Part shown: one piece after another, positions 14,201-64,000 of the stretch
Numbering within the stretch: position 1 is the stretch's first letter
How the letters are laid out: every line of letters starts with the position of its first letter
Source of the DNA: Actinomycetota bacterium
GTDB taxonomy: Bacteria; Actinomycetota; UBA4738; HRBIN12
DNA length: 64,000 bases
Reading direction: 5' to 3'
Assembly (NCBI GenBank): GCA_040754475.1
Contig: JBFMCN010000036.1
Span: 24,801 to 88,800 of the forward strand
Program-made: the position numbers and the translations under genes
The notes under the pieces: model-generated
Database searches by the model: none
What the model saw: only the letters and a program-made list of their open reading frames with translations
What the model was told of the DNA's origin: nothing

Positions 14201-14273
14201 TGGCCAGGGGCAGAATCGAACTGCCGACACCGCGGTTTTCAGCCGCGTGCTCTGCCAACTGAGCTACCTGGCC
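14201..14273 (-). tRNA. tRNA-Phe (anticodon GAA)
   Basis: Reverse complement GGCCAGGTAGCTCAGTTGGCAGAGCACGCGGCTGAAAACCGCGGTGTCGGCAGTTCGATTCTGCCCCTGGCCA folds as a cloverleaf with anticodon loop CTGAAAA. Confidence 0.9.
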
Positions 14274-14303
14274 GTAACCGGTCCTCGAGGACCGGGCGTC
14301 CAG

Positions 14304-14379
14304 CGCGGGTGACGGGCTTCGATCCCGCGATCTCCGCCTTGACAGGGCGGTGAGGACGGCCAGGCTCCTCTACACCCGC
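14304..14379 (-). tRNA. tRNA-Asp (anticodon GTC)
   Basis: Reverse complement GCGGGTGTAGAGGAGCCTGGCCGTCCTCACCGCCCTGTCAAGGCGGAGATCGCGGGATCGAAGCCCGTCACCCGCG. 7-bp acceptor stem, D, anticodon (CTGTCAA) and T arms all pair. The T-loop is unusual (ATCGAAG). Confidence 0.65.
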
Positions 14380-14395
14380 GTGCTATTCGGTTGTG

Positions 14396-14468
14396 TGCCC
14401 CCAACGGGATTCGAACCCGTGTCGCCGCCTTGAAAGGGCGAAATCCTGGGCCGCTAGACGATGGGGGC
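14396..14468 (-). tRNA. tRNA-Glu (anticodon TTC)
   Basis: Reverse complement GCCCCCATCGTCTAGCGGCCCAGGATTTCGCCCTTTCAAGGCGGCGACACGGGTTCGAATCCCGTTGGGGGCA is close to the canonical bacterial tRNA-Glu. Confidence 0.85.
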
Positions 14469-14826
14469 CCGTGCGTCCCCGGGACGCCCGTTGCGCCCGA
14501 CCTGGGGGCAGCCGAAGAAGTATAGCCTGCCCTGCTGCGGCCTCTGGAGCGGCGGGTTCAACACGTGCGTGGTGGTCGTTCACCATCCGGGTGGGCGCTC
14601 TACGGGAGGTGCCGATCGGCGCCGATGAGAGGTGCATGCGGGCGCTGCTCGAGTTCCTTGGGATCCTCGAGCCTGACCGAGCGCGCCGTGAGCCGGTCAC
14701 GCTGCCCTCGTGGGCTTTCTGGACGGCCCCACTCCTCGTCCTTGCCCTGGTGGTGGCTTCGACCCTCGTGCTCGTGGTCATTCGGGCCTTCTTCTGAACC
14801 GCGGCTCCGCGGGAAGGCGGCTCAGC

Positions 14827-15153
14827 TCAGTCCATCCGCATCTGATCGCCTGGCAGGAGATCGGCATCCTCGGGTGCCTCGAGCACGTGGAGTGCACGCA
14901 GACGTGGGAGCAGGAGCCTCCCGGGGGACACATGCTCGACTCGAACCACGCGAAGGTGTCGGTCGAGGAAGACCGCGGTGATCTCGAACCGCATGCCGAA
15001 CGTGTGGACCGACCGCGCGCGCTCGAACAGCATCGCACGCCGTTCCTGCAGTTGAGTGCGTCCCAGCAGACCTCGCGCCCGCTCGAACCGGCTCGTCGGA
15101 ACATCGACCTGCCAGGAGGAGCCTCGCGGGTCGGTCAACAGAATCGTTCGCAA
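14827..15153 (-). CDS. DUF192 domain-containing protein (108 aa)
   Basis: GLLGR...MLFER..SVHTFGMRFEITAVFLD...RVV matches the DUF192 (COG1430) pattern. No signal peptide. Confidence 0.65.
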   Translation of the reverse strand: MRTILLTDPRGSSWQVDVPTSRFERARGLLGRTQLQERRAMLFERARSVHTFGMRFEITAVFLDRHLRVVRVEHVSPGRLLLPRLRALHVLEAPEDADLLPGDQMRMD

Positions 15154-15192
15154 GAGGGGCCACCGTAGCGGATGGGTCGGACACGCCTTTCC

Positions 15193-15266
15193 GGAGTGGC
15201 TTGTGGAGTGGCGTGCGGAGTGGCTTGTGGAGTGGCTTGTGAGGTCTCAGTGTGAGGTCTCAGTAC
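15193..15266. repeat. tandem repeat block: 12-mer GGAGTGGCTTGT x4 (one variant GGAGTGGCGTGC) followed by 13-mer GAGGTCTCAGTGT x2
   Basis: Read directly in the sequence. It ends 3 nt from the 3' end of tRNA-Lys. Confidence 0.85.
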
Positions 15267-15269
15267 CCG

Positions 15270-15344
15270 TGGGGCGGGCAGGATTCGAACCCGCGACACG
15301 AGGGTTAAAAGCCCCCTGCTCTGACCCGGCTGAGCTACCGCCCC
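15270..15344 (-). tRNA. tRNA-Lys (anticodon TTT)
   Basis: Reverse complement GGGGCGGTAGCTCAGCCGGGTCAGAGCAGGGGGCTTTTAACCCTCGTGTCGCGGGTTCGAATCCTGCCCGCCCCA. Anticodon loop CTTTTAA. Confidence 0.9.
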
Positions 15345-56595: not shown

Positions 56596-57342
56596 ATGCT
56601 GCTTGGCGCCATGTGGGTCCTCGCCTTGGGAGCCGGCGCCGTCGCTCTGGCCTTCGCCGGGGTCCTTGCGCGCCAGTGGCTCTTCCATCGACGTCCCCAT
56701 CAGGCGGTGTGGGCTGTCGCGATGCTCATGTACGCGGCGGCCTCGCTCGCGCTGTTCCTGGGCTTGCTGGACGGGTGGTCGGCCGGCGAGTTCAAGGTGT
56801 ACTGGCTCTTCGGTGCGATCCTGAACGTCCCCTGTCTGCTGCTCGGCGAGCTGTACCTCCTCGTGCGCCGTCGCGTGATCGTGGACGGCCTTCTCGTCGC
56901 CCTCCTGTTCCTCACGGCGTTTGCCGTCTCACGTGTTCGTACGGCCACGATCGTCGGCAGCCTGTCGACGGATCTGCCGCTGGGGAAGGACGTGTTCGGA
57001 GACGGCTCGGTGCCGCACCGGCTCGCCCAGTACTACGCGTACCCTGCGTACGTCCTGCTCGTTGCCGCATGCGGGTGGTCGGCCTGGCGGATGCGTGGCA
57101 GGCCGGAGCTCAGGGACCGCTTCGGTGGGACGCTTCTGATTGCGGTGGGCGCCACGATCGTGGCGATCGGGTCGGGGGTGGGAGCGGGCCTCGAAGTGGT
57201 TCCCGTGCTTTCCGTTGGCCTGCTCGCCGGGGTTGCCGTCATGTTCTGGGGATTCCTTAGGGCCTCCGGATCGGGAGCGCGCTCCGGCGGGGGGGCAGAG
57301 CCCAGTGCCGGTCGGCCGTGGCCCTTCCGACGCAGGGCTTGA
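56596..57342 (+). CDS. integral membrane protein (about 6 TM helices), function unknown
   Basis: Strongly hydrophobic 248-aa ORF. Confidence 0.5.
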   Translation: MLLGAMWVLALGAGAVALAFAGVLARQWLFHRRPHQAVWAVAMLMYAAASLALFLGLLDGWSAGEFKVYWLFGAILNVPCLLLGELYLLVRRRVIVDGLLVALLFLTAFAVSRVRTATIVGSLSTDLPLGKDVFGDGSVPHRLAQYYAYPAYVLLVAACGWSAWRMRGRPELRDRFGGTLLIAVGATIVAIGSGVGAGLEVVPVLSVGLLAGVAVMFWGFLRASGSGARSGGGAEPSAGRPWPFRRRA

Positions 57343-57383
57343 GCATTTGTGCGCCGATCACGCCCTGGGCTAGCATCCCGGCC

Positions 57384-58025
57384 GTGAGCGAGCGCCCCGT
57401 CCCCGAGGCCACCGTGGGGCGCCTTCCCATCTACCTGCAAGCGCTCGTCGAGATCGGCCAGGGCGGGGCGTCGACGGTCTCGTCAGAGGCGCTGGGGGAG
57501 ACCGCCGGGGTCAACTCGGCGAAGGTCCGCAAGGATCTTTCGCATCTGGGGTCGTACGGGACGCGAGGCGTCGGCTACGACGTCGCCTACCTCATCCACC
57601 AGATACGTCGAGAGCTGGGGCTCACCGAGTGCTGGCCGGTCGTGATCGCGGGTATCGGCAACCTCGGTCACGCGCTCGCAAACTACCCGGGCTTCGCCGA
57701 CAGGGGATTCCGGACGGCGGCCCTCGTCGACACGGACCCGACGAAGGTGGGGGAAGTAGTGGGGGGCCTCACCGTCCGCCACGTGGACGAGCTTCCCGAG
57801 ATCCTGCGGGAGCACGGTCCGGCGATGGGCGTGATCTGCACGCCGGCCTCCCAGGCTCAGGCGGTGGCCGACCGGCTCGTGGCCGCCGGGGTGCGCTCGA
57901 TCCTGAGCTTCGCTCCGGTGACGATCCTGGAGCCGGCGGGCGTTTCGGTGAGGAAGGTCGACCTGGCCGTCGAGCTCCAGATCCTCGCGTTCCACGAGCA
58001 GCGCAAGCGGGCGCTCGCGACGTGA
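57384..58025 (+). CDS. rex: redox-sensing transcriptional repressor Rex
   Basis: N-terminal winged helix (GRLPIYLQAL...SSEALGE.AGVNSAKVRKDLSHLGSYGTRGVGYDV) plus Rossmann NADH domain (VIAGIGNLG). Confidence 0.85.
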   Translation: MSERPVPEATVGRLPIYLQALVEIGQGGASTVSSEALGETAGVNSAKVRKDLSHLGSYGTRGVGYDVAYLIHQIRRELGLTECWPVVIAGIGNLGHALANYPGFADRGFRTAALVDTDPTKVGEVVGGLTVRHVDELPEILREHGPAMGVICTPASQAQAVADRLVAAGVRSILSFAPVTILEPAGVSVRKVDLAVELQILAFHEQRKRALAT

Positions 58026-58095: not shown

Positions 58096-58521
58096 ATGGA
58101 TCTCGCCCGTGCGCGGAGGATGTTCGGTGGGCTGCCGGTCGCGAACGTGGCCACGGTCGGTCCTGGGGGAACGCCCCACGTCGTGCCGCTCTGGTTCGTG
58201 TGGACCGAGGACGCGATCTATGTCTCGACGCGCCAGCCCAGCCGGACGTGGAGCAACGCGAACGCCGATCGGAGCGTATCGCTCGCCATAGACCTTGGGC
58301 GGAGCTGGGTGGAGATCGCAGGGATCGTCGTGGAGGGAAGCGCCGAGCCGCTGGCAGCGGACCACCCGTCGATGCGCAAGCCGATCTCGGCCTGGCACGA
58401 GAAGTACCGCTCGCTCCTTGCCGGCGACGGCTTCGAGCGCTTCTCGGAAGAGGTCGAGCGTCTGGTCTTCCTGCGGGTCGTCCCCGAGCGCGCGCGGTCA
58501 TGGGACCACGCCCGCGGGTAG
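58096..58521 (+). CDS. pyridoxamine 5'-phosphate oxidase-like FMN/F420-binding split-barrel protein
   Basis: ANVATVGPGGTPHVVPLWFVW is the PPOX-class N-terminal signature. Confidence 0.7.
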   Translation: MDLARARRMFGGLPVANVATVGPGGTPHVVPLWFVWTEDAIYVSTRQPSRTWSNANADRSVSLAIDLGRSWVEIAGIVVEGSAEPLAADHPSMRKPISAWHEKYRSLLAGDGFERFSEEVERLVFLRVVPERARSWDHARG

Positions 58522-58556: not shown

Positions 58557-58574
58557 TTGAGAACGGATTCACAA
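58557..58574 (+). promoter_or_regulatory. Rex operator (ROP)-like site TTGAGAA-CGGA-TTCACAA
   Basis: 17 of 18 positions match the consensus TTGTGAA-N4-TTCACAA. Lies about 50 nt upstream of the GGR gene start and 530 nt downstream of the rex gene's 3' end. Confidence 0.55.
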
Positions 58575-58624
58575 GTCGTCGGAAAGCTGCGGAGTCTTCA
58601 CAGACGGTTGGGGACGGCCACGTC

Positions 58625-59875
58625 GTGACCGATACGGCAAACACCAGACGAGACGTCGATGTGCTCGTCGTGGGGGCAGGCCCCGGAGGTTCGGCGACCG
58701 CCTACCACCTGGCTCGCCACGGCATCGACGTCATGCTGGTCGAAAGATCCGCATTCCCGCGCGAGAAGGCGTGCGGCGACGGGCTGACGCCCCGCGGGGT
58801 CAAGGCGGTGATCCGAATGGGGGTCGACCCTGACGACCCCGGCTTCGAGAGGGTTCGAGGCCTTCAGGTGCACACGCGGAAGGTCACTCTGCACTTCCCG
58901 TGGCCGACTCTGCACGACTACCCCGACTACGGGCTCATTCGCACACGTATGGAGCTCGACGATCTGCTCGTGCGCCGCGCCGAGAAGGCCGGCGCCACGC
59001 TTCACGAGAGGATCGAGGCGGTCTCGCCCGTCCTCGTCGATGGCTGGGTCGCCGGCGCCACGGTCCGTCCCGTCGACGGAGGCGAGCCGGCGGAGGTCCG
59101 AACGCGGTTCATCGTCGCCGCCGACGGCGCCTCCTCTCGCTTTGCCGCCCAGGCCGGCGTCGGTCGAGACGCGTCTCGCCCGCTGGGGATCGCGGCGCGC
59201 CGCTACTACCGAACGAATCGCCGCCCCGGTCCCTGGATGGACGTCTGGATGGACCTGTGGGACGAGGATTCGCTCATGCCGGGCTTCGGCTGGATCTTCC
59301 CGCTTGCCGATGGTCGCGTGAACGTCGGGGCGGGGCTCCTGAACACATTCAGGAACTTCAAGAACGTCTCCGCGCAGCGGGTCTTCGACGCGTTCTGCAG
59401 TACGCTCCCGCGGGACTGGGGCGTGGGCGAGGAGACCTCGGACGGCCGCCTTCTCTCCGGTCCGCTCCCGATGGCGCTCAACCGCGGCCCCCAGGCAGTA
59501 CCGGGAATGCTGGTGGTCGGTGACGCGGCGGGACTCGTGAACCCGTTCAACGGAGAGGGGATCGCCTACGCGATCGAGTCGGGGGAGATCGCCGCAGAGC
59601 TGATCCACGACGCTTTGGTCAAGGATCGGCCAGGACTCGCGCACATGTATCCGGCGGTTCTACGGGAGCGATATGGGCGGTACTTCCGCGTTGGTAGGGA
59701 GTTCGTTCGACTCATAGGGAACCCGAAGGTCATGCGAGTGCTCACCGAGTACGGTCTCCCGCGGCAGTGGCTGATGCGCTTTGCCCACCGGTTCATGAGC
59801 AACCTCACGGACGGCAGGAAGGGCGACGCACAGGACCGATTGATGGACGCGCTTCTCAGACTGGTTCCGGCGTGA
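58625..59875 (+). CDS. geranylgeranyl reductase family FAD-dependent oxidoreductase (MenJ-like menaquinone side-chain reductase)
   Basis: DVLVVGAGPGGSATAY FAD motif, CGDGLT, and GGR-family C-terminal region. Confidence 0.75.
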   Translation: MTDTANTRRDVDVLVVGAGPGGSATAYHLARHGIDVMLVERSAFPREKACGDGLTPRGVKAVIRMGVDPDDPGFERVRGLQVHTRKVTLHFPWPTLHDYPDYGLIRTRMELDDLLVRRAEKAGATLHERIEAVSPVLVDGWVAGATVRPVDGGEPAEVRTRFIVAADGASSRFAAQAGVGRDASRPLGIAARRYYRTNRRPGPWMDVWMDLWDEDSLMPGFGWIFPLADGRVNVGAGLLNTFRNFKNVSAQRVFDAFCSTLPRDWGVGEETSDGRLLSGPLPMALNRGPQAVPGMLVVGDAAGLVNPFNGEGIAYAIESGEIAAELIHDALVKDRPGLAHMYPAVLRERYGRYFRVGREFVRLIGNPKVMRVLTEYGLPRQWLMRFAHRFMSNLTDGRKGDAQDRLMDALLRLVPA

Positions 59876-59924
59876 AAGGGAGGAAGGCGGGGATGCTGTC
59901 CGGGTTCCAGATAGAGTCCGGCCC

Positions 59925-60932
59925 ATGAGCAGTGGCCTGCTCCCTGGGGTCGCGCCGCCGGACCCGACGCTCGAGCGAGAGATACGCGGTCGGCTGCGCG
60001 AGGTCGAAGCGGCCCTGGAGAAGGCCGTGCGGGCCGACTCGGGCATGCTTGGTGAGACGGCCGCGTACCTGCTGGCGGCCGGCGGCAAGCGCTTCCGGCC
60101 GATGCTGATCCTGCTCTCCGGATACTTCGGCGACCCGGCGGACCCCCGTCTGATCCCTGGATCGGTCGTGATCGAGCTCGTTCACGTGGCCACGCTGTAC
60201 CACGACGATGTGATCGACGAGGCGGACTCGCGCCACGCGGTTCCGAGCGCGAACGCCAGGTGGAGCAACACCGTTGCGATCCTCACCGGTGACTACCTGT
60301 TCGCGCGAGCGTCCGAGATAGCGGCAGAGCTCGGGACGGACGTTTGTGCCCTGCTGGCGCGCACGATCGCAACGCTGTGCGACGGGCAGATCCGCGAGGT
60401 CGAGGCCGCCGGGCGTCTGACCCAGACCGAACAGGCCTATCGAGAGATCATCCGCCGCAAGACGGGGGCGCTCATCGCCGCCTCATGCAGGCTGGGCGGG
60501 ATGCTCTCGGGCGCTCCGGCTCCGTTCGTCGAGGTGCTCGAGGAGTTCGGTGAGGCGCTCGGCATGGCTTTCCAGCTTTCGGACGACATCATGGACATCA
60601 CTTCGACCCAGCTCGAGCTCGGCAAGGAGCCGGGAGTGGACATGAAGGAGGGCGTCTACACGCTCCCAGTGCTCCACGCGCTCGCTACCGCCGGGCAGCG
60701 GGATGAGCTGGCTCGGCTGCTCGCTGCAGGACCACCCGCGGAGGAGCGTCTGGACCGGGCGCTTGAGATAGTGCGCGCAGGGGACAGCTTGGCGCACGCG
60801 AAAGCGGCCGTCGCCGCCGAGGTCCGCCGGGCAACCGACCTTGCCCGGCAGCTCCCCGACAACGTCTCTCGCGGGGCCTTGGTCACGCTCGCCGAGTTCC
60901 TCGCGACGCGCTGCGGGGCCGGGCGGTCGTGA
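59925..60932 (+). CDS. polyprenyl diphosphate synthase (trans-IPPS, GrcC-like)
   Basis: First DDxxD motif ([11 protein letters not shown]) and second (LSDDIMD). GKRFRP region. Confidence 0.85.
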
Positions 60933-61345
60933 CGGGCTTGTTGCTAGAATCCCCGCTGCTCGGAGAAGCATCCACAAGCGTGGAGACCTACTACCAGTCC
61001 TACGGGGTCGTCCTCGCGGTCCTGGTCGCTGGCGCGGTGCTCGTCGCGGCCGCATTCGGGATCGCGCGGCTGCTGGCGCCTCACCGTCCGCTGCCCGACA
61101 AGCTCAAGACGTACGAGTGCGGTATCGATCCGGTCGGGGAGGGATGGTCCCAGAGTCAGGTCCGCTACTACGTCTACGGGTTCCTCTTCGTCATCTTCGA
61201 CGTCGAGAGCGTGTTCCTCTTCCCGTGGGCCCGGGTATTCGAGGGACTCGGCTATCAGGCCGTGATCGAGATGGCCATCTTCATCGGGATCCTCGCGGCC
61301 GGTCTCGTCTACGCGTGGCGGAAGGGGGTCCTGCGTTGGGCCTGA
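60929..61345 (+). CDS. nuoA: NADH-quinone oxidoreductase subunit A
   Basis: YECGIDP...[26 protein letters not shown] overlap with the upstream gene. Confidence 0.9.
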
Positions 61346-61848
61346 TCGAGAAGACGTCGCTCCCCAAGCTTCAGCCGGTCAAGTTCATCCTGAACTGGGG
61401 TCGGCGCTACTCGCTCTGGGTGATCAACTTCGGTCTCGCGTGCTGCGCCATCGAGTTCATCGCGGCCTCGACGTCCAAGCACGACTTCATCCGCTTCGGA
61501 GTCATTCCGTTCGCCCACGGTCCGCGGCAGGCCGACCTGCTCGTGGTGGCGGGGACTCTCACCGACAAGATGGCTCCGGTGGTCAAGCGTGTGTACGAGC
61601 AGATGCCGGAGCCGAAGTACGTGATCTCCTACGGTTCGTGCGCGAACTGCGGGGGGCCCTACTGGGACAGCTACTCGGTCACGAAGGGCGTGGACCAGAT
61701 CGTGCCGGTGGACGTGTACGTGCCGGGCTGCCCGCCCCGCCCCGAGGCCCTGCTGCAGGGGATCATGAGGCTGCAGGAGAAGATCGCGAAGGAAGACATC
61801 AGGGAGAAGTGGAGTGGCCAGCACACGGCGCCCGCTACCACCCCCTGA
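61336..61848 (+). CDS. nuoB: NADH-quinone oxidoreductase subunit B
   Basis: [35 protein letters not shown] start overlapping the nuoA end. Confidence 0.9.
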
Positions 61849-62341
61849 GGTCGAGTCGCGCCTGCGGGCGAGTTTCGGCGATGACGTGCTTTCGTTCGAG
61901 GATCAGTACGGGCACGCGGTCGTTTCGGTCGCGCCGGCCCGCTACCGGGACGTGGCCATCTTCCTCCGCGACGATCCGGATCTCGCGTGCGACTTCTGCG
62001 ACTTCGCGGGCGGTGTCGATCTCGGCTCGGCCGGGTTCGAAGTGGTGACCCACCTCTACTCGACAACGCACAACCACAATGTCCGTCTGAAGGTTCGGCT
62101 TCCGCACGAGAACCCGGTGTGCCCGACCATCTCCGACGTCTTCCCGGGTGCGAACTGGCACGAGCGCGAGACAGCCGAGATGTTCGGGATCGTCTTCGAG
62201 GGGCATCCGCAGCCTGTGAAGCTGCTGCTTCCGGAGCCTTTCGAGGGTCATCCGCTGCGAAAGGACTTCCCCCTGATCAGCCGCGAGGTCAAGCCCTGGC
62301 CGGGGGCAATAGAGGGCGAAGAGGCGGAAGAGGAAGAGTGA
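61814..62341 (+). CDS. nuoC: NADH-quinone oxidoreductase subunit C (30-kDa subunit)
   Basis: [20 protein letters not shown] motif. 175 aa. Not fused to NuoD. Confidence 0.85.
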
Positions 62342-63342
62342 TCGTGGCTGCTCAGGGCGTGAGCATCTTCAACGACTGGATCGGCAACTTCTGGGTCGTC
62401 CTCGTCGTCAAGGCCATCGCCGCCCTCGGGTTCTTCTTGATCGCGGCGCTGGCGATCGGCTATCTGGAGCACAAGGTCCTTGCCCACATGCAGGCGCGGC
62501 TCGGACCGATGTACGCGGGTGGCTTCCACGGCTGGGCCCAGCTCCTCGCCGACGCGGCGAAGTTCATCCAGAAGGAAGACGTGATCCCAGCCGCGGCCGA
62601 CCGGTGGGTGTTCTCGCTTGCTCCTGCGGTCGTGATGATCCCGTACGTCGTCATCTTCGTCGTCATCCCCTTCTCCAACACGATCTACGCGGAGAACCTC
62701 GACGTGGGGATCTTCTTCGTGATGGCGATCGGGTCCATGAGCGTGATCGGGATCCTGATGGCGGGATGGTCCTCGGCCAACAAGTTCTCGCTGATCGGGG
62801 CTCTCAGGGCGGCGGCTCAGCTCATCGCCTACGAGCTGCCACTCATCCTGGCGGCGGCGGCCGTCGTGATGCAGGCCGGCACGCTATCGCTGATAGGCAT
62901 CGCCGAAGCCCAGGACCGGTACTGGTTCGCGTTGACCCAGCCGATCGGGTTCCTCATCTTCCTGACTGCATCGCTCGCCGAGCTGGCGCGTTCGCCCTTC
63001 GACATGCCCATCGCCGACTCGGAGATCATCGCGGGCGCGTACACCGAGTACACGGGCATGAAGTTCGCGTTCTGCCTGCTGTCCGAATACGCAGGCATCG
63101 TCGCGCTCTCCGCGATCGCCTCTGTCCTGTACCTCGGCGGTTACCAGGGGTTCCTCGGGGTACCCGAGCCGCTCTGGATGGCGGCCAAGATCGGCGCGTT
63201 ATCGTTCTTCGTCATCTGGCTGCGGGCCACGTACCCGCGCATGCGCGAAGACCAGCTCCAGCGGTTCTCTTGGCTGGTGCTGATCCCGTTGGCGCTCGTC
63301 CAGATCGTCGTGGTCGGGCTGGTGAAGGTCGCGGTCGGGTAG
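62338..63342 (+). CDS. nuoH: NADH-quinone oxidoreductase subunit H
   Basis: [36 protein letters not shown] overlap with the nuoC stop. Confidence 0.9.
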
Positions 63343-63360
63343 GCCGGAGAGCGGGGAAGC

Positions 63361-64000
63361 GTGGCGATCGAGGAGAAGGGCGTCCGCAGGCCGGAGAAGG
63401 AGGTCTCAGGCACCGGCCTGGGCCTGCTCAAGGGCCTCGGCGTCACCCTCAAGCACTTCATGAGGAAGACGGTGACGCAGCGGTATCCGGAGGAACGGCC
63501 GGACCTCCCCCCCCGCACACGCGGCGTGATCGCGCTGAAGCAGGAGAACTGCACCGTCTGCTACAAGTGTGCGCGTGAGTGTCCCGACTGGTGCATCTAC
63601 ATCGATGCGCACAAGGAGACCCACCAGCCGGCGTCCGTCGGCAAGGCCCGCTCGGTGAAGGTGCTCGATCGCTTCGCCATCGACTATGCGCTCTGCATGT
63701 ACTGCGGGATATGTGTCGAGGTCTGCCCCTTCGACGCCCTGTTCTGGAGCCGGGAGTTCGAGTACGCGGAGTACTCCGTCGTGGATCTCATCCACGAGAA
63801 GGAGAGGTTGCAGGAGTGGACCTACACGGTTCTGCCCCCGCCGCCCCTCGAGGAGGGAGCGGAGATGCTCGCCCGCCCGACTGAGGTCGCCGACGTCACA
63901 GCGGCAGAGGAGGCCGTGGAGCCCGCCGCCGCTGCTCCAAGCGCTGCTCCGAGCGCCGCTCCGAGCACGTCCGTCGCTACCGCTGAGACAGGACCCGCTC
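63361..64000 (+). CDS. nuoI: NADH-quinone oxidoreductase subunit I (2x[4Fe-4S]), partial at the window edge
   Basis: [12 protein letters not shown] and [12 protein letters not shown] ferredoxin motifs. Low-complexity Ala/Pro/Ser C-terminal tail continues past 64000. Confidence 0.85.

Follow-up and report, generated by a model that had tools for sequence, protein, structure and literature searches.

Streptomyces genomes have been reported to carry a complete nuoA-N operon plus a partial nuoABCHIJKLMN operon (PMC8622039). In S. coelicolor the partial operon, 'nuo2' (SCO4599-SCO4608), has been described as of unclear function (PMC9239103), its proteins have been detected by proteomics (PMC9739823), and a separate nuoD2 has been mentioned for Streptomyces (PMC8388888). 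Here we analyse a nuo set that lacks nuoD, nuoE, nuoF and nuoG and lies at the end of a 64,000-nucleotide stretch of an Actinomycetota genome (assembly GCA_040754475.1, contig JBFMCN010000036.1, positions 24,801 to 88,800; 'the window' below). Judged by published descriptions rather than by sequence, it has the same gene content as Streptomyces nuo2, and the window thus holds a real and ordinary-looking example of a type of nuo set, without NuoD, that is already known though not characterised. Unlike its Streptomyces counterpart, the window set is joined to the menaquinone genes menJ and ispB and to a Rex operator, the canonical operon is missing from where relatives conserve it, and no nuoD2 was found within the 64 kb. 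What is new here is the derivation of such sets from D-containing 11-subunit clusters, their tandem nuo1-ispB-nuo2 arrangement in many uncultured Actinomycetota, the conserved Rex operator and the clean absence of nuo1 from this lineage.

The set shares homologous A, B, C, H and I subunits, as well as the ligands of iron-sulphur (Fe-S) clusters N2 and N6a/b, with the canonical 14-subunit NDH-1 (M. smegmatis 8E9G, T. thermophilus 4HEA, E. coli 7NYH), and the L2, M2, N2 and K2 proteins of its relatives keep the proton-pump residues. It differs from the canonical enzyme in that the window encodes neither the quinone-site subunit NuoD nor the NuoE/F/G N-module, and its proteins share no more than 35-50% identity with the canonical paralogs in related genomes.

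Gene content of the window set and recurrence of its junctions

The genes of the nuo2 locus, all of which lie on the plus strand, were called by Pfam and NCBIfam profile scans of open reading frames:

58643..59875, plus strand: MenJ-like protein of the geranylgeranyl-reductase family, candidate menaquinone side-chain reductase (TIGR02032, about 227-228 bits, cut-off 159)
59925..60932, plus strand: long-chain polyprenyl diphosphate synthase, IspB/GrcC1-like (PF00348, E = 1e-61; 100% identical to MEW6059268.1)
60929..61345, plus strand: nuoA2 (PF00507; 90% identity to A2 of locus L001; equivalents of D79 and E81 retained)
61336..61848, plus strand: nuoB2 (PF01058; TIGR01957, 224 bits)
61814..62341, plus strand: nuoC2, 175 amino acids, unfused and without a NuoD domain (PF00329 as the sole domain)
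62338..63342, plus strand: nuoH2 (PF00146, E = 6e-102; NF004741, 320 bits, cut-off 305)
63361..64000, plus strand: nuoI2, 5' part, open at the window end (translation; NuoI models and Fer4; alignment to T. thermophilus Nqo9)

The MenJ-like product also matches the MenJ equivalog model with 236 bits, under that model's cut-off of 700.

An earlier note, made from the letters of this stretch alone, had described nuoA-B-C-H-I without nuoD, nuoE, nuoF or nuoG, and the profile calls agree with it, as do tblastn searches with E. coli NuoD, NuoE, NuoF and NuoG, which found none of the four genes in the 64-kb window. Nor does the window hold canonical nuo genes: when the NuoH1-N1 proteins of a relative were used as tblastn queries, they matched only the nuo2 genes, at 31-42% identity. 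The junctions, which we read directly from the sequence, are likewise as the note had it. At 62338-62341 the TGA of the 175-residue, unfused nuoC2 overlaps the GTG of nuoH2 in a GTGA, leaving no room for nuoD or nuoEFG, and a second GTGA at 60929-60932 joins the stop codon of the polyprenyl synthase gene to the start of nuoA2, so that the set is co-directional with, and overlaps into, the MenJ-like and synthase genes. By these overlapping stops and starts nuo2 is tied to menaquinone side-chain genes; the MenJ-like stop (59875) and the IspB start (59925) are themselves separated by 49 nucleotides (nt). With H following C and none of the D, E, F and G genes in between, the A-B-C-H-I order is that of the actinobacterial nuo2-type partial operon (nuoABCHIJKLMN). 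The window ends within nuoI2; J2-K2-L2-M2-N2 would follow beyond it, as they do in the nearest relatives, loci L166 and L170.

The junction between nuoC and nuoH is widespread. A NuoC2-like profile search returned 80 loci, each in a species-level metagenome-assembled genome (MAG) of uncultured Actinomycetota, and loci fetched via protein look-ups bring the set to 87. In these related actinobacterial loci NuoC is directly followed by NuoH, with a median gap of 42 nt between the aligned segments, and within ±10 kb of NuoC2 there were zero matches to NuoD, NuoE or NuoF and no PF00346-like sequence. The only exception among the fetched loci, L084, reads A-B-C-D-H. Altogether, more than 80 species-level genomes have kept the nuo2 set. 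We therefore give practically no credence to the possibility that a sequencing error hides nuoD, which the earlier note had raised against its own claim, or that an assembly error does so or has wrongly joined nuoC and nuoH: nothing was found in its favour, the C-H junction recurs in 87 loci from many independent assemblies, and the junction between MenJ and IspB is reproduced in ENA and JGI assemblies of other samples.

In the NuoI2 proteins we observed an Ala/Pro/Glu-rich, low-complexity C-terminal extension (window 63850-64000; L001:11544-12383; L166:13437-14384). In relatives NuoI2 reaches 279-315 amino acids in total, versus 165 for NuoI1. In one long-read MAG (L004:11532-12953) NuoI2 and NuoJ2 are called as one 473-residue product, which may be either a true fusion or a frameshift error.

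Layout in relatives and origin of nuo2

The arrangement in relatives explains what the window set is and what is absent beside it. In 65 of the 68 loci with an upstream flank, nuo2 is preceded by the end of a canonical operon and a polyprenyl synthase gene, in the order ...nuoG1-H1-I1-J1-K1-L1-M1-N1 – IspB – nuoA2-B2-C2-H2-I2-J2-K2-L2-M2-N2 – HtpX. The other half of the layout came from a metagenome scan with the MenJ-like protein, in which the canonical nuoA1-B1-C1-D1-E1-F1-G1-H1 genes were found directly 3' of MenJ in relatives. The two halves are joined by locus L088, which is 98-100% identical to L001 across the overlapping genes and hence connects them in the L001 organism. Taken together, the gene orders argue for the ancestral layout PPOX – MenJ – nuo1 (14 genes) – IspB – nuo2 (10 genes) – HtpX.

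Because these relatives hold a complete nuoA1-N1 plus the 10-gene set, and because the window genes are paralogs of nuo1 at 35-50% identity, comparison of the loci identifies the window set as a paralogous second operon, 'nuo2', and not as half of a split canonical operon. The suggestion that this is a second, truncated and non-canonical NDH-1-like set has thus held up, and the split-operon alternative that had been named as its refutation is ruled out by the full nuo1 that relatives carry beside nuo2.

The layout of the window equals the order in relatives minus the entire 14-gene nuo1 block. An identical MenJ-IspB-nuo2 junction without nuo1 is found in three independent assemblies of other samples, namely in L166 (ENA; IspB 91% identical) and in L170/L171 (JGI; 90%), and in these loci N2 is followed by yajQ, not htpX. 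The slightly more distant L167 (87%) retains both nuo1 and htpX. L063 also has a D-less nuo2 with no nuo1 within 9 kb, in an unrelated context.

As for the origin of nuo2, the window A2, B2, C2, H2 and I2 proteins are 47-76% identical to those of Actinomycetota 11-gene clusters, A-B-C-D-H-I-J-K-L-M-N, that lack E, F and G (L084; L172, from Salsipaludibacter albus of the Nitriliruptoria; L173; L174; L175). These clusters contain the closest relatives of every window subunit and share with it the NuoH substitutions R37H, E216V/I and E218D; they differ from the window set in holding nuoD between C and H. In L173 the 11-gene cluster is followed by HtpX, as is nuo2. Since the closest relatives of nuo2 are EFG-less 11-subunit clusters that still have nuoD, the comparison makes nuo2 an 11-subunit-type, EFG-less cluster from which nuoD was lost secondarily. 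We sought a sequence signature specific to D loss in B2, C2, H2 and I2 and found almost none: nearly all the residues that separate the D-less proteins from the canonical ones are common to the D-containing relatives, leaving only about one change in each protein to the D-less clade itself. The D-less state occurs almost only where a nuoD-bearing canonical operon lies directly upstream, the exceptions being the window lineage and L063.

The three NuoH substitutions, given in E. coli numbering, correspond to residues 45, 225 and 227 of NuoH2 (window 62338-63342) and occur in the whole nuo2 family, with or without nuoD. R37H lies in the region of the first transmembrane helix (TM1), and E216V/I and E218D lie in the PFDxPEAExE motif of the TM5-6 loop; the canonical NuoH paralogs of the same genomes retain R, E and E at positions 37, 216 and 218.

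NuoC homologues of about 500 amino acids were considered as NuoC-NuoH or NuoC-NuoD fusions and rejected: they are NuoC proteins with long disordered tails, from Nitriliruptoria clusters that contain NuoD. The tails of Nitriliruptoria NuoC span 100-450 amino acids and carry conserved islands (a PF27542 match in L172).

A different arrangement was seen in L152:11329-13437 (JGI Ga0207683_10000092), which reads MenJ-nuoA-B-C-E-F-G-H-I-J-K, with nuoE starting about 20 nt past the nuoC stop in a stretch without Ns. As this canonical-type operon demonstrates, nuoD may be separated even from a gene set of the 14-subunit type.

Selection on nuo2 and the proposed source of NuoD

A set that lacks four core subunits and, in this lineage, has also lost the neighbouring canonical operon could be a decaying, functionless remnant of a duplicated operon. 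We compared the three nuo1-less loci (window, L166 and L170), among which the synonymous substitution rate (dS) ranges from 0.2 to 0.7-0.8. The ratio of non-synonymous to synonymous rates (dN/dS) is 0.09-0.16 for A2, B2, C2, H2 and J2-N2, and 0.22-0.28 for I2, matching the values for nuo1-bearing pairs and for the nuo1 genes themselves, and all reading frames of nuo2 are intact. The cofactor sites are preserved as well. NuoB2 has all four ligands of Fe-S cluster N2, its CCxxE, GSCANCGG and PGCPP motifs aligning with PSST/NuoB of solved complex I, and in NuoI2 the two CxxCxxCxxxCP motifs keep the N6a/N6b cysteine ligands intact in an alignment to T. thermophilus Nqo9. The pump residues were followed in L166, the closest relative with a full-length set: all the canonical Glu/Lys/His residues are kept in its L2, M2, N2, K2 and A2, judged by a list in E. 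coli numbering drawn from mutagenesis and structural work.

With dN/dS around 0.1, intact Fe-S ligands and, in L166, retained pump residues, the nuo2 genes look functional. The remnant explanation, on which one would not expect intact frames and dN/dS of 0.09-0.16 at dS 0.2-0.8 in three lineages, is further contradicted by conservation in more than 80 species-level genomes and by the detection of the Streptomyces counterparts as proteins (PMC9739823). We consider it very improbable, and the pseudogene reading was rejected as effectively refuted by the selection analysis.

How, then, could such a set work without NuoD? To our knowledge, every characterised relative of complex I needs NuoD to build its quinone pocket. 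The NuoD (49-kDa) homologue supplies the quinone-binding Tyr and His, and NuoC, which carries no cofactor, has a structural role and clasps NuoD. The explanation that we favour, with confidence that is evenly balanced, is that the window holds the start of a paralogous complex-I-like operon derived from an 11-subunit ancestor and encoding a proton-pumping module, linked to menaquinone, that works with a NuoD from outside the set. The products of A, H, J, K, L, M and N would form the proton-pumping membrane arm; B, with cluster N2, together with C and I, with its two 4Fe-4S clusters, would form part of the quinone module, and the complex would recruit NuoD made from another locus. In relatives the canonical operon just upstream would supply it as NuoD1, perhaps with NuoE/F/G as well, to give an NADH:menaquinone isoenzyme; what donates the electrons and which way the reaction runs are both conditional in this scheme. 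In the window lineage, where the canonical operon has been removed from its place, nuoD, or the whole of nuo1, is predicted to lie elsewhere in the genome.

We infer that NuoD acts in trans from four lines of evidence. Every solved homologous complex contains a NuoD homologue; NuoC, structural around NuoD, is retained and conserved; the D-facing partners B2, C2 and H2 show no signature of D loss; and loss of D goes with a neighbouring nuoD1 (65 of 68 loci).

The same observations bear on the main rival, a stand-alone 10-subunit complex, A2-B2-C2-H2-I2-J2-K2-L2-M2-N2, that has no NuoD-like subunit and has either an altered quinone site or different chemistry at N2. Such a complex would be without precedent among the solved relatives that we matched (complex I, NDH-1, MBH 6CFW, MBS 6U8Y and FHL 7Z0S), all of which contain NuoD or a large-subunit homologue. 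It would also have kept and conserved NuoC, a cofactor-less clasp for NuoD, and acquired almost no D-less-specific substitutions in B2, C2 and H2, and it does not account for the correlation between the D-less state and an adjoining operon that encodes NuoD (65/68 loci). We therefore regard it as distinctly unlikely. What keeps it alive is selection: the window, L166 and L170/L171 hold nuo2 at dN/dS of about 0.1 even though the adjacent nuo1 is gone, L063 has its D-less nuo2 in an unrelated context, and no stand-alone nuoD of the matching type was seen in five contexts.

These points must also be counted against the supply of NuoD from elsewhere. No nuoD has been located for this genome, and there is none in the 64-kb window. 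The presumed donor, nuo1, is gone from its place in the window, L166 and L170/L171, and nuo2 is nonetheless under strong purifying selection, which a D-independent function would predict equally well; L063, D-less and with no nuo1 within 9 kb, adds a further such case. Finally, a search with the NuoD of L084 found no stand-alone nuo2-type nuoD, all five of the five contexts being 11-subunit operons, a result that can also be graded as neither support nor refutation. A stronger form of the rival is that canonical nuo was lost from this lineage, not moved, and that the ten nuo2 subunits make a working respiratory or ion-pumping complex without a NuoD-type subunit. We think this a slimmer prospect still; if true, nuo2 would set a precedent in the complex I / group-4 hydrogenase superfamily, as its first member able to work without a large-subunit homologue.

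Either way, a Nuo set that is conserved across many genomes, under selection and expressed, and that has no NuoD, would imply subunit sharing between two complex I isoforms or a new working mode. We know of no bacterial complex I for which subunit sharing between two isoforms has been shown. The window lineage amounts to a natural experiment, with the canonical operon cleanly removed from between menJ and ispB and nuo2 under strong selection.

Possible electron donor, predicted Rex control and upstream genes

Which electron donor would feed nuo2 depends largely on how its regulation and its ancestry are weighed. The features upstream of the MenJ-like gene that bear on this are:

57318..58025, plus strand: rex, redox-sensing (NADH/NAD+) transcriptional repressor (NF003992, 337 bits, cut-off 226; PF06971 and PF02629)
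58096..58521, plus strand: PNPOx/PPOX-class oxidoreductase, possibly F420-dependent (PF01243; TIGR03618, 56 bits, under its cut-off of 79)
58557..58574, palindrome without assigned strand: Rex operator (ROP)-like site TTGAGAACGGATTCACAA, between the PPOX and MenJ-like genes

Rex senses NADH/NAD+, and both the ROP consensus and Rex repression of nuoA1-N1 have been experimentally established in Streptomyces (PMC5355995). The site at 58557-58574 has one mismatch to TTGTGAA-N4-TTCACAA and is the sole match in the 64 kb; it qualifies as a predicted ROP palindrome of the Rex regulon. Nearly all relatives have a perfect or 1-mismatch ROP site at the corresponding position before the MenJ-like gene. 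With the nuo1 block gone, nuo2 now stands directly behind the MenJ promoter, which is predicted to be under Rex control. From that promoter and its operator nuo2 would be co-transcribed with the MenJ-like reductase and the polyprenyl synthase, and its expression would rise as NADH/NAD+ rises. Its ties to Rex and to genes for the menaquinone side chain suggest that the nuo2 enzyme is used at a high NADH/NAD+ ratio.

The earlier note had pointed instead to an NDH-1-like enzyme, perhaps akin to Fpo, whose electrons come not from NADH but possibly from F420H2 or ferredoxin. Like cyanobacterial and plastid NDH-1 and archaeal Fpo, nuo2 has no NuoEFG module, and neither have the ancestral 11-subunit clusters. 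The best solved-structure matches of NuoH2 are NdhA (6HUM) and NuoH (8E9G), with NdhA of the ferredoxin-dependent cyanobacterial NDH-1 in first place but only 8 bits above M. smegmatis NuoH, and a PPOX-class gene, possibly F420-dependent, is conserved upstream. However, the cyanobacterial/plastid and Fpo enzymes contain a NuoD homologue (NdhH/FpoD) and donor-binding subunits (NdhS/V/O; FpoF). The window has no gene of the NdhH/FpoD, NdhS/V/O or FpoF type, and no FpoF/FpoO-like or NdhS/V/O-like gene was found in the window or within ±10 kb in relatives. Fpo models score far under their cut-offs (FpoH 248 vs 475, FpoC 68 vs 220 and FpoI 60 vs 180 bits), and the PPOX match, itself under its own cut-off, lies upstream of the Rex operator and outside the operon. 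Control by Rex, a sensor of NADH/NAD+, fits an NADH-linked role, and a full NuoEFG set is encoded just upstream in 65 of the 68 relatives. Rex control and the tandem layout thus favour NADH, while the EFG-less ancestry and the marginal NdhA match favour another donor; on this evidence we judge feeding by F420H2 or ferredoxin to be unlikely.

Most relatives keep the PPOX-class gene directly ahead of the Rex operator and the MenJ-like gene, with orthologues in L086-L113 and L166. The position of rex is more variable. The closest relative has there, on the other strand, a small gene for a 2x[4Fe-4S] ferredoxin-like protein (L166:7625-8017), and more distant relatives have another polyprenyl-synthase-like gene whose identity to IspB is about 30%.

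One further element lies between the MenJ-like and IspB genes:

59912..59917, plus strand: TAGAGT, -10-like hexamer of a possible leaderless promoter, 7 nt before the IspB ATG

A TAG(A/G)GT-N7-ATG arrangement upstream of IspB is common to the closest relatives only, not to all, and a leaderless promoter before IspB is a weak possibility. Ahead of IspB in L166 (L166:9905-10001), the short segment that spans the TAGAGT hexamer and the start of IspB occurs three times in tandem, and the copies have diverged.

Elsewhere in the window, an Rfam scan that returned nothing near the nuo2 locus detected only four tRNAs, which form a cluster on the minus strand at 14201-15344.

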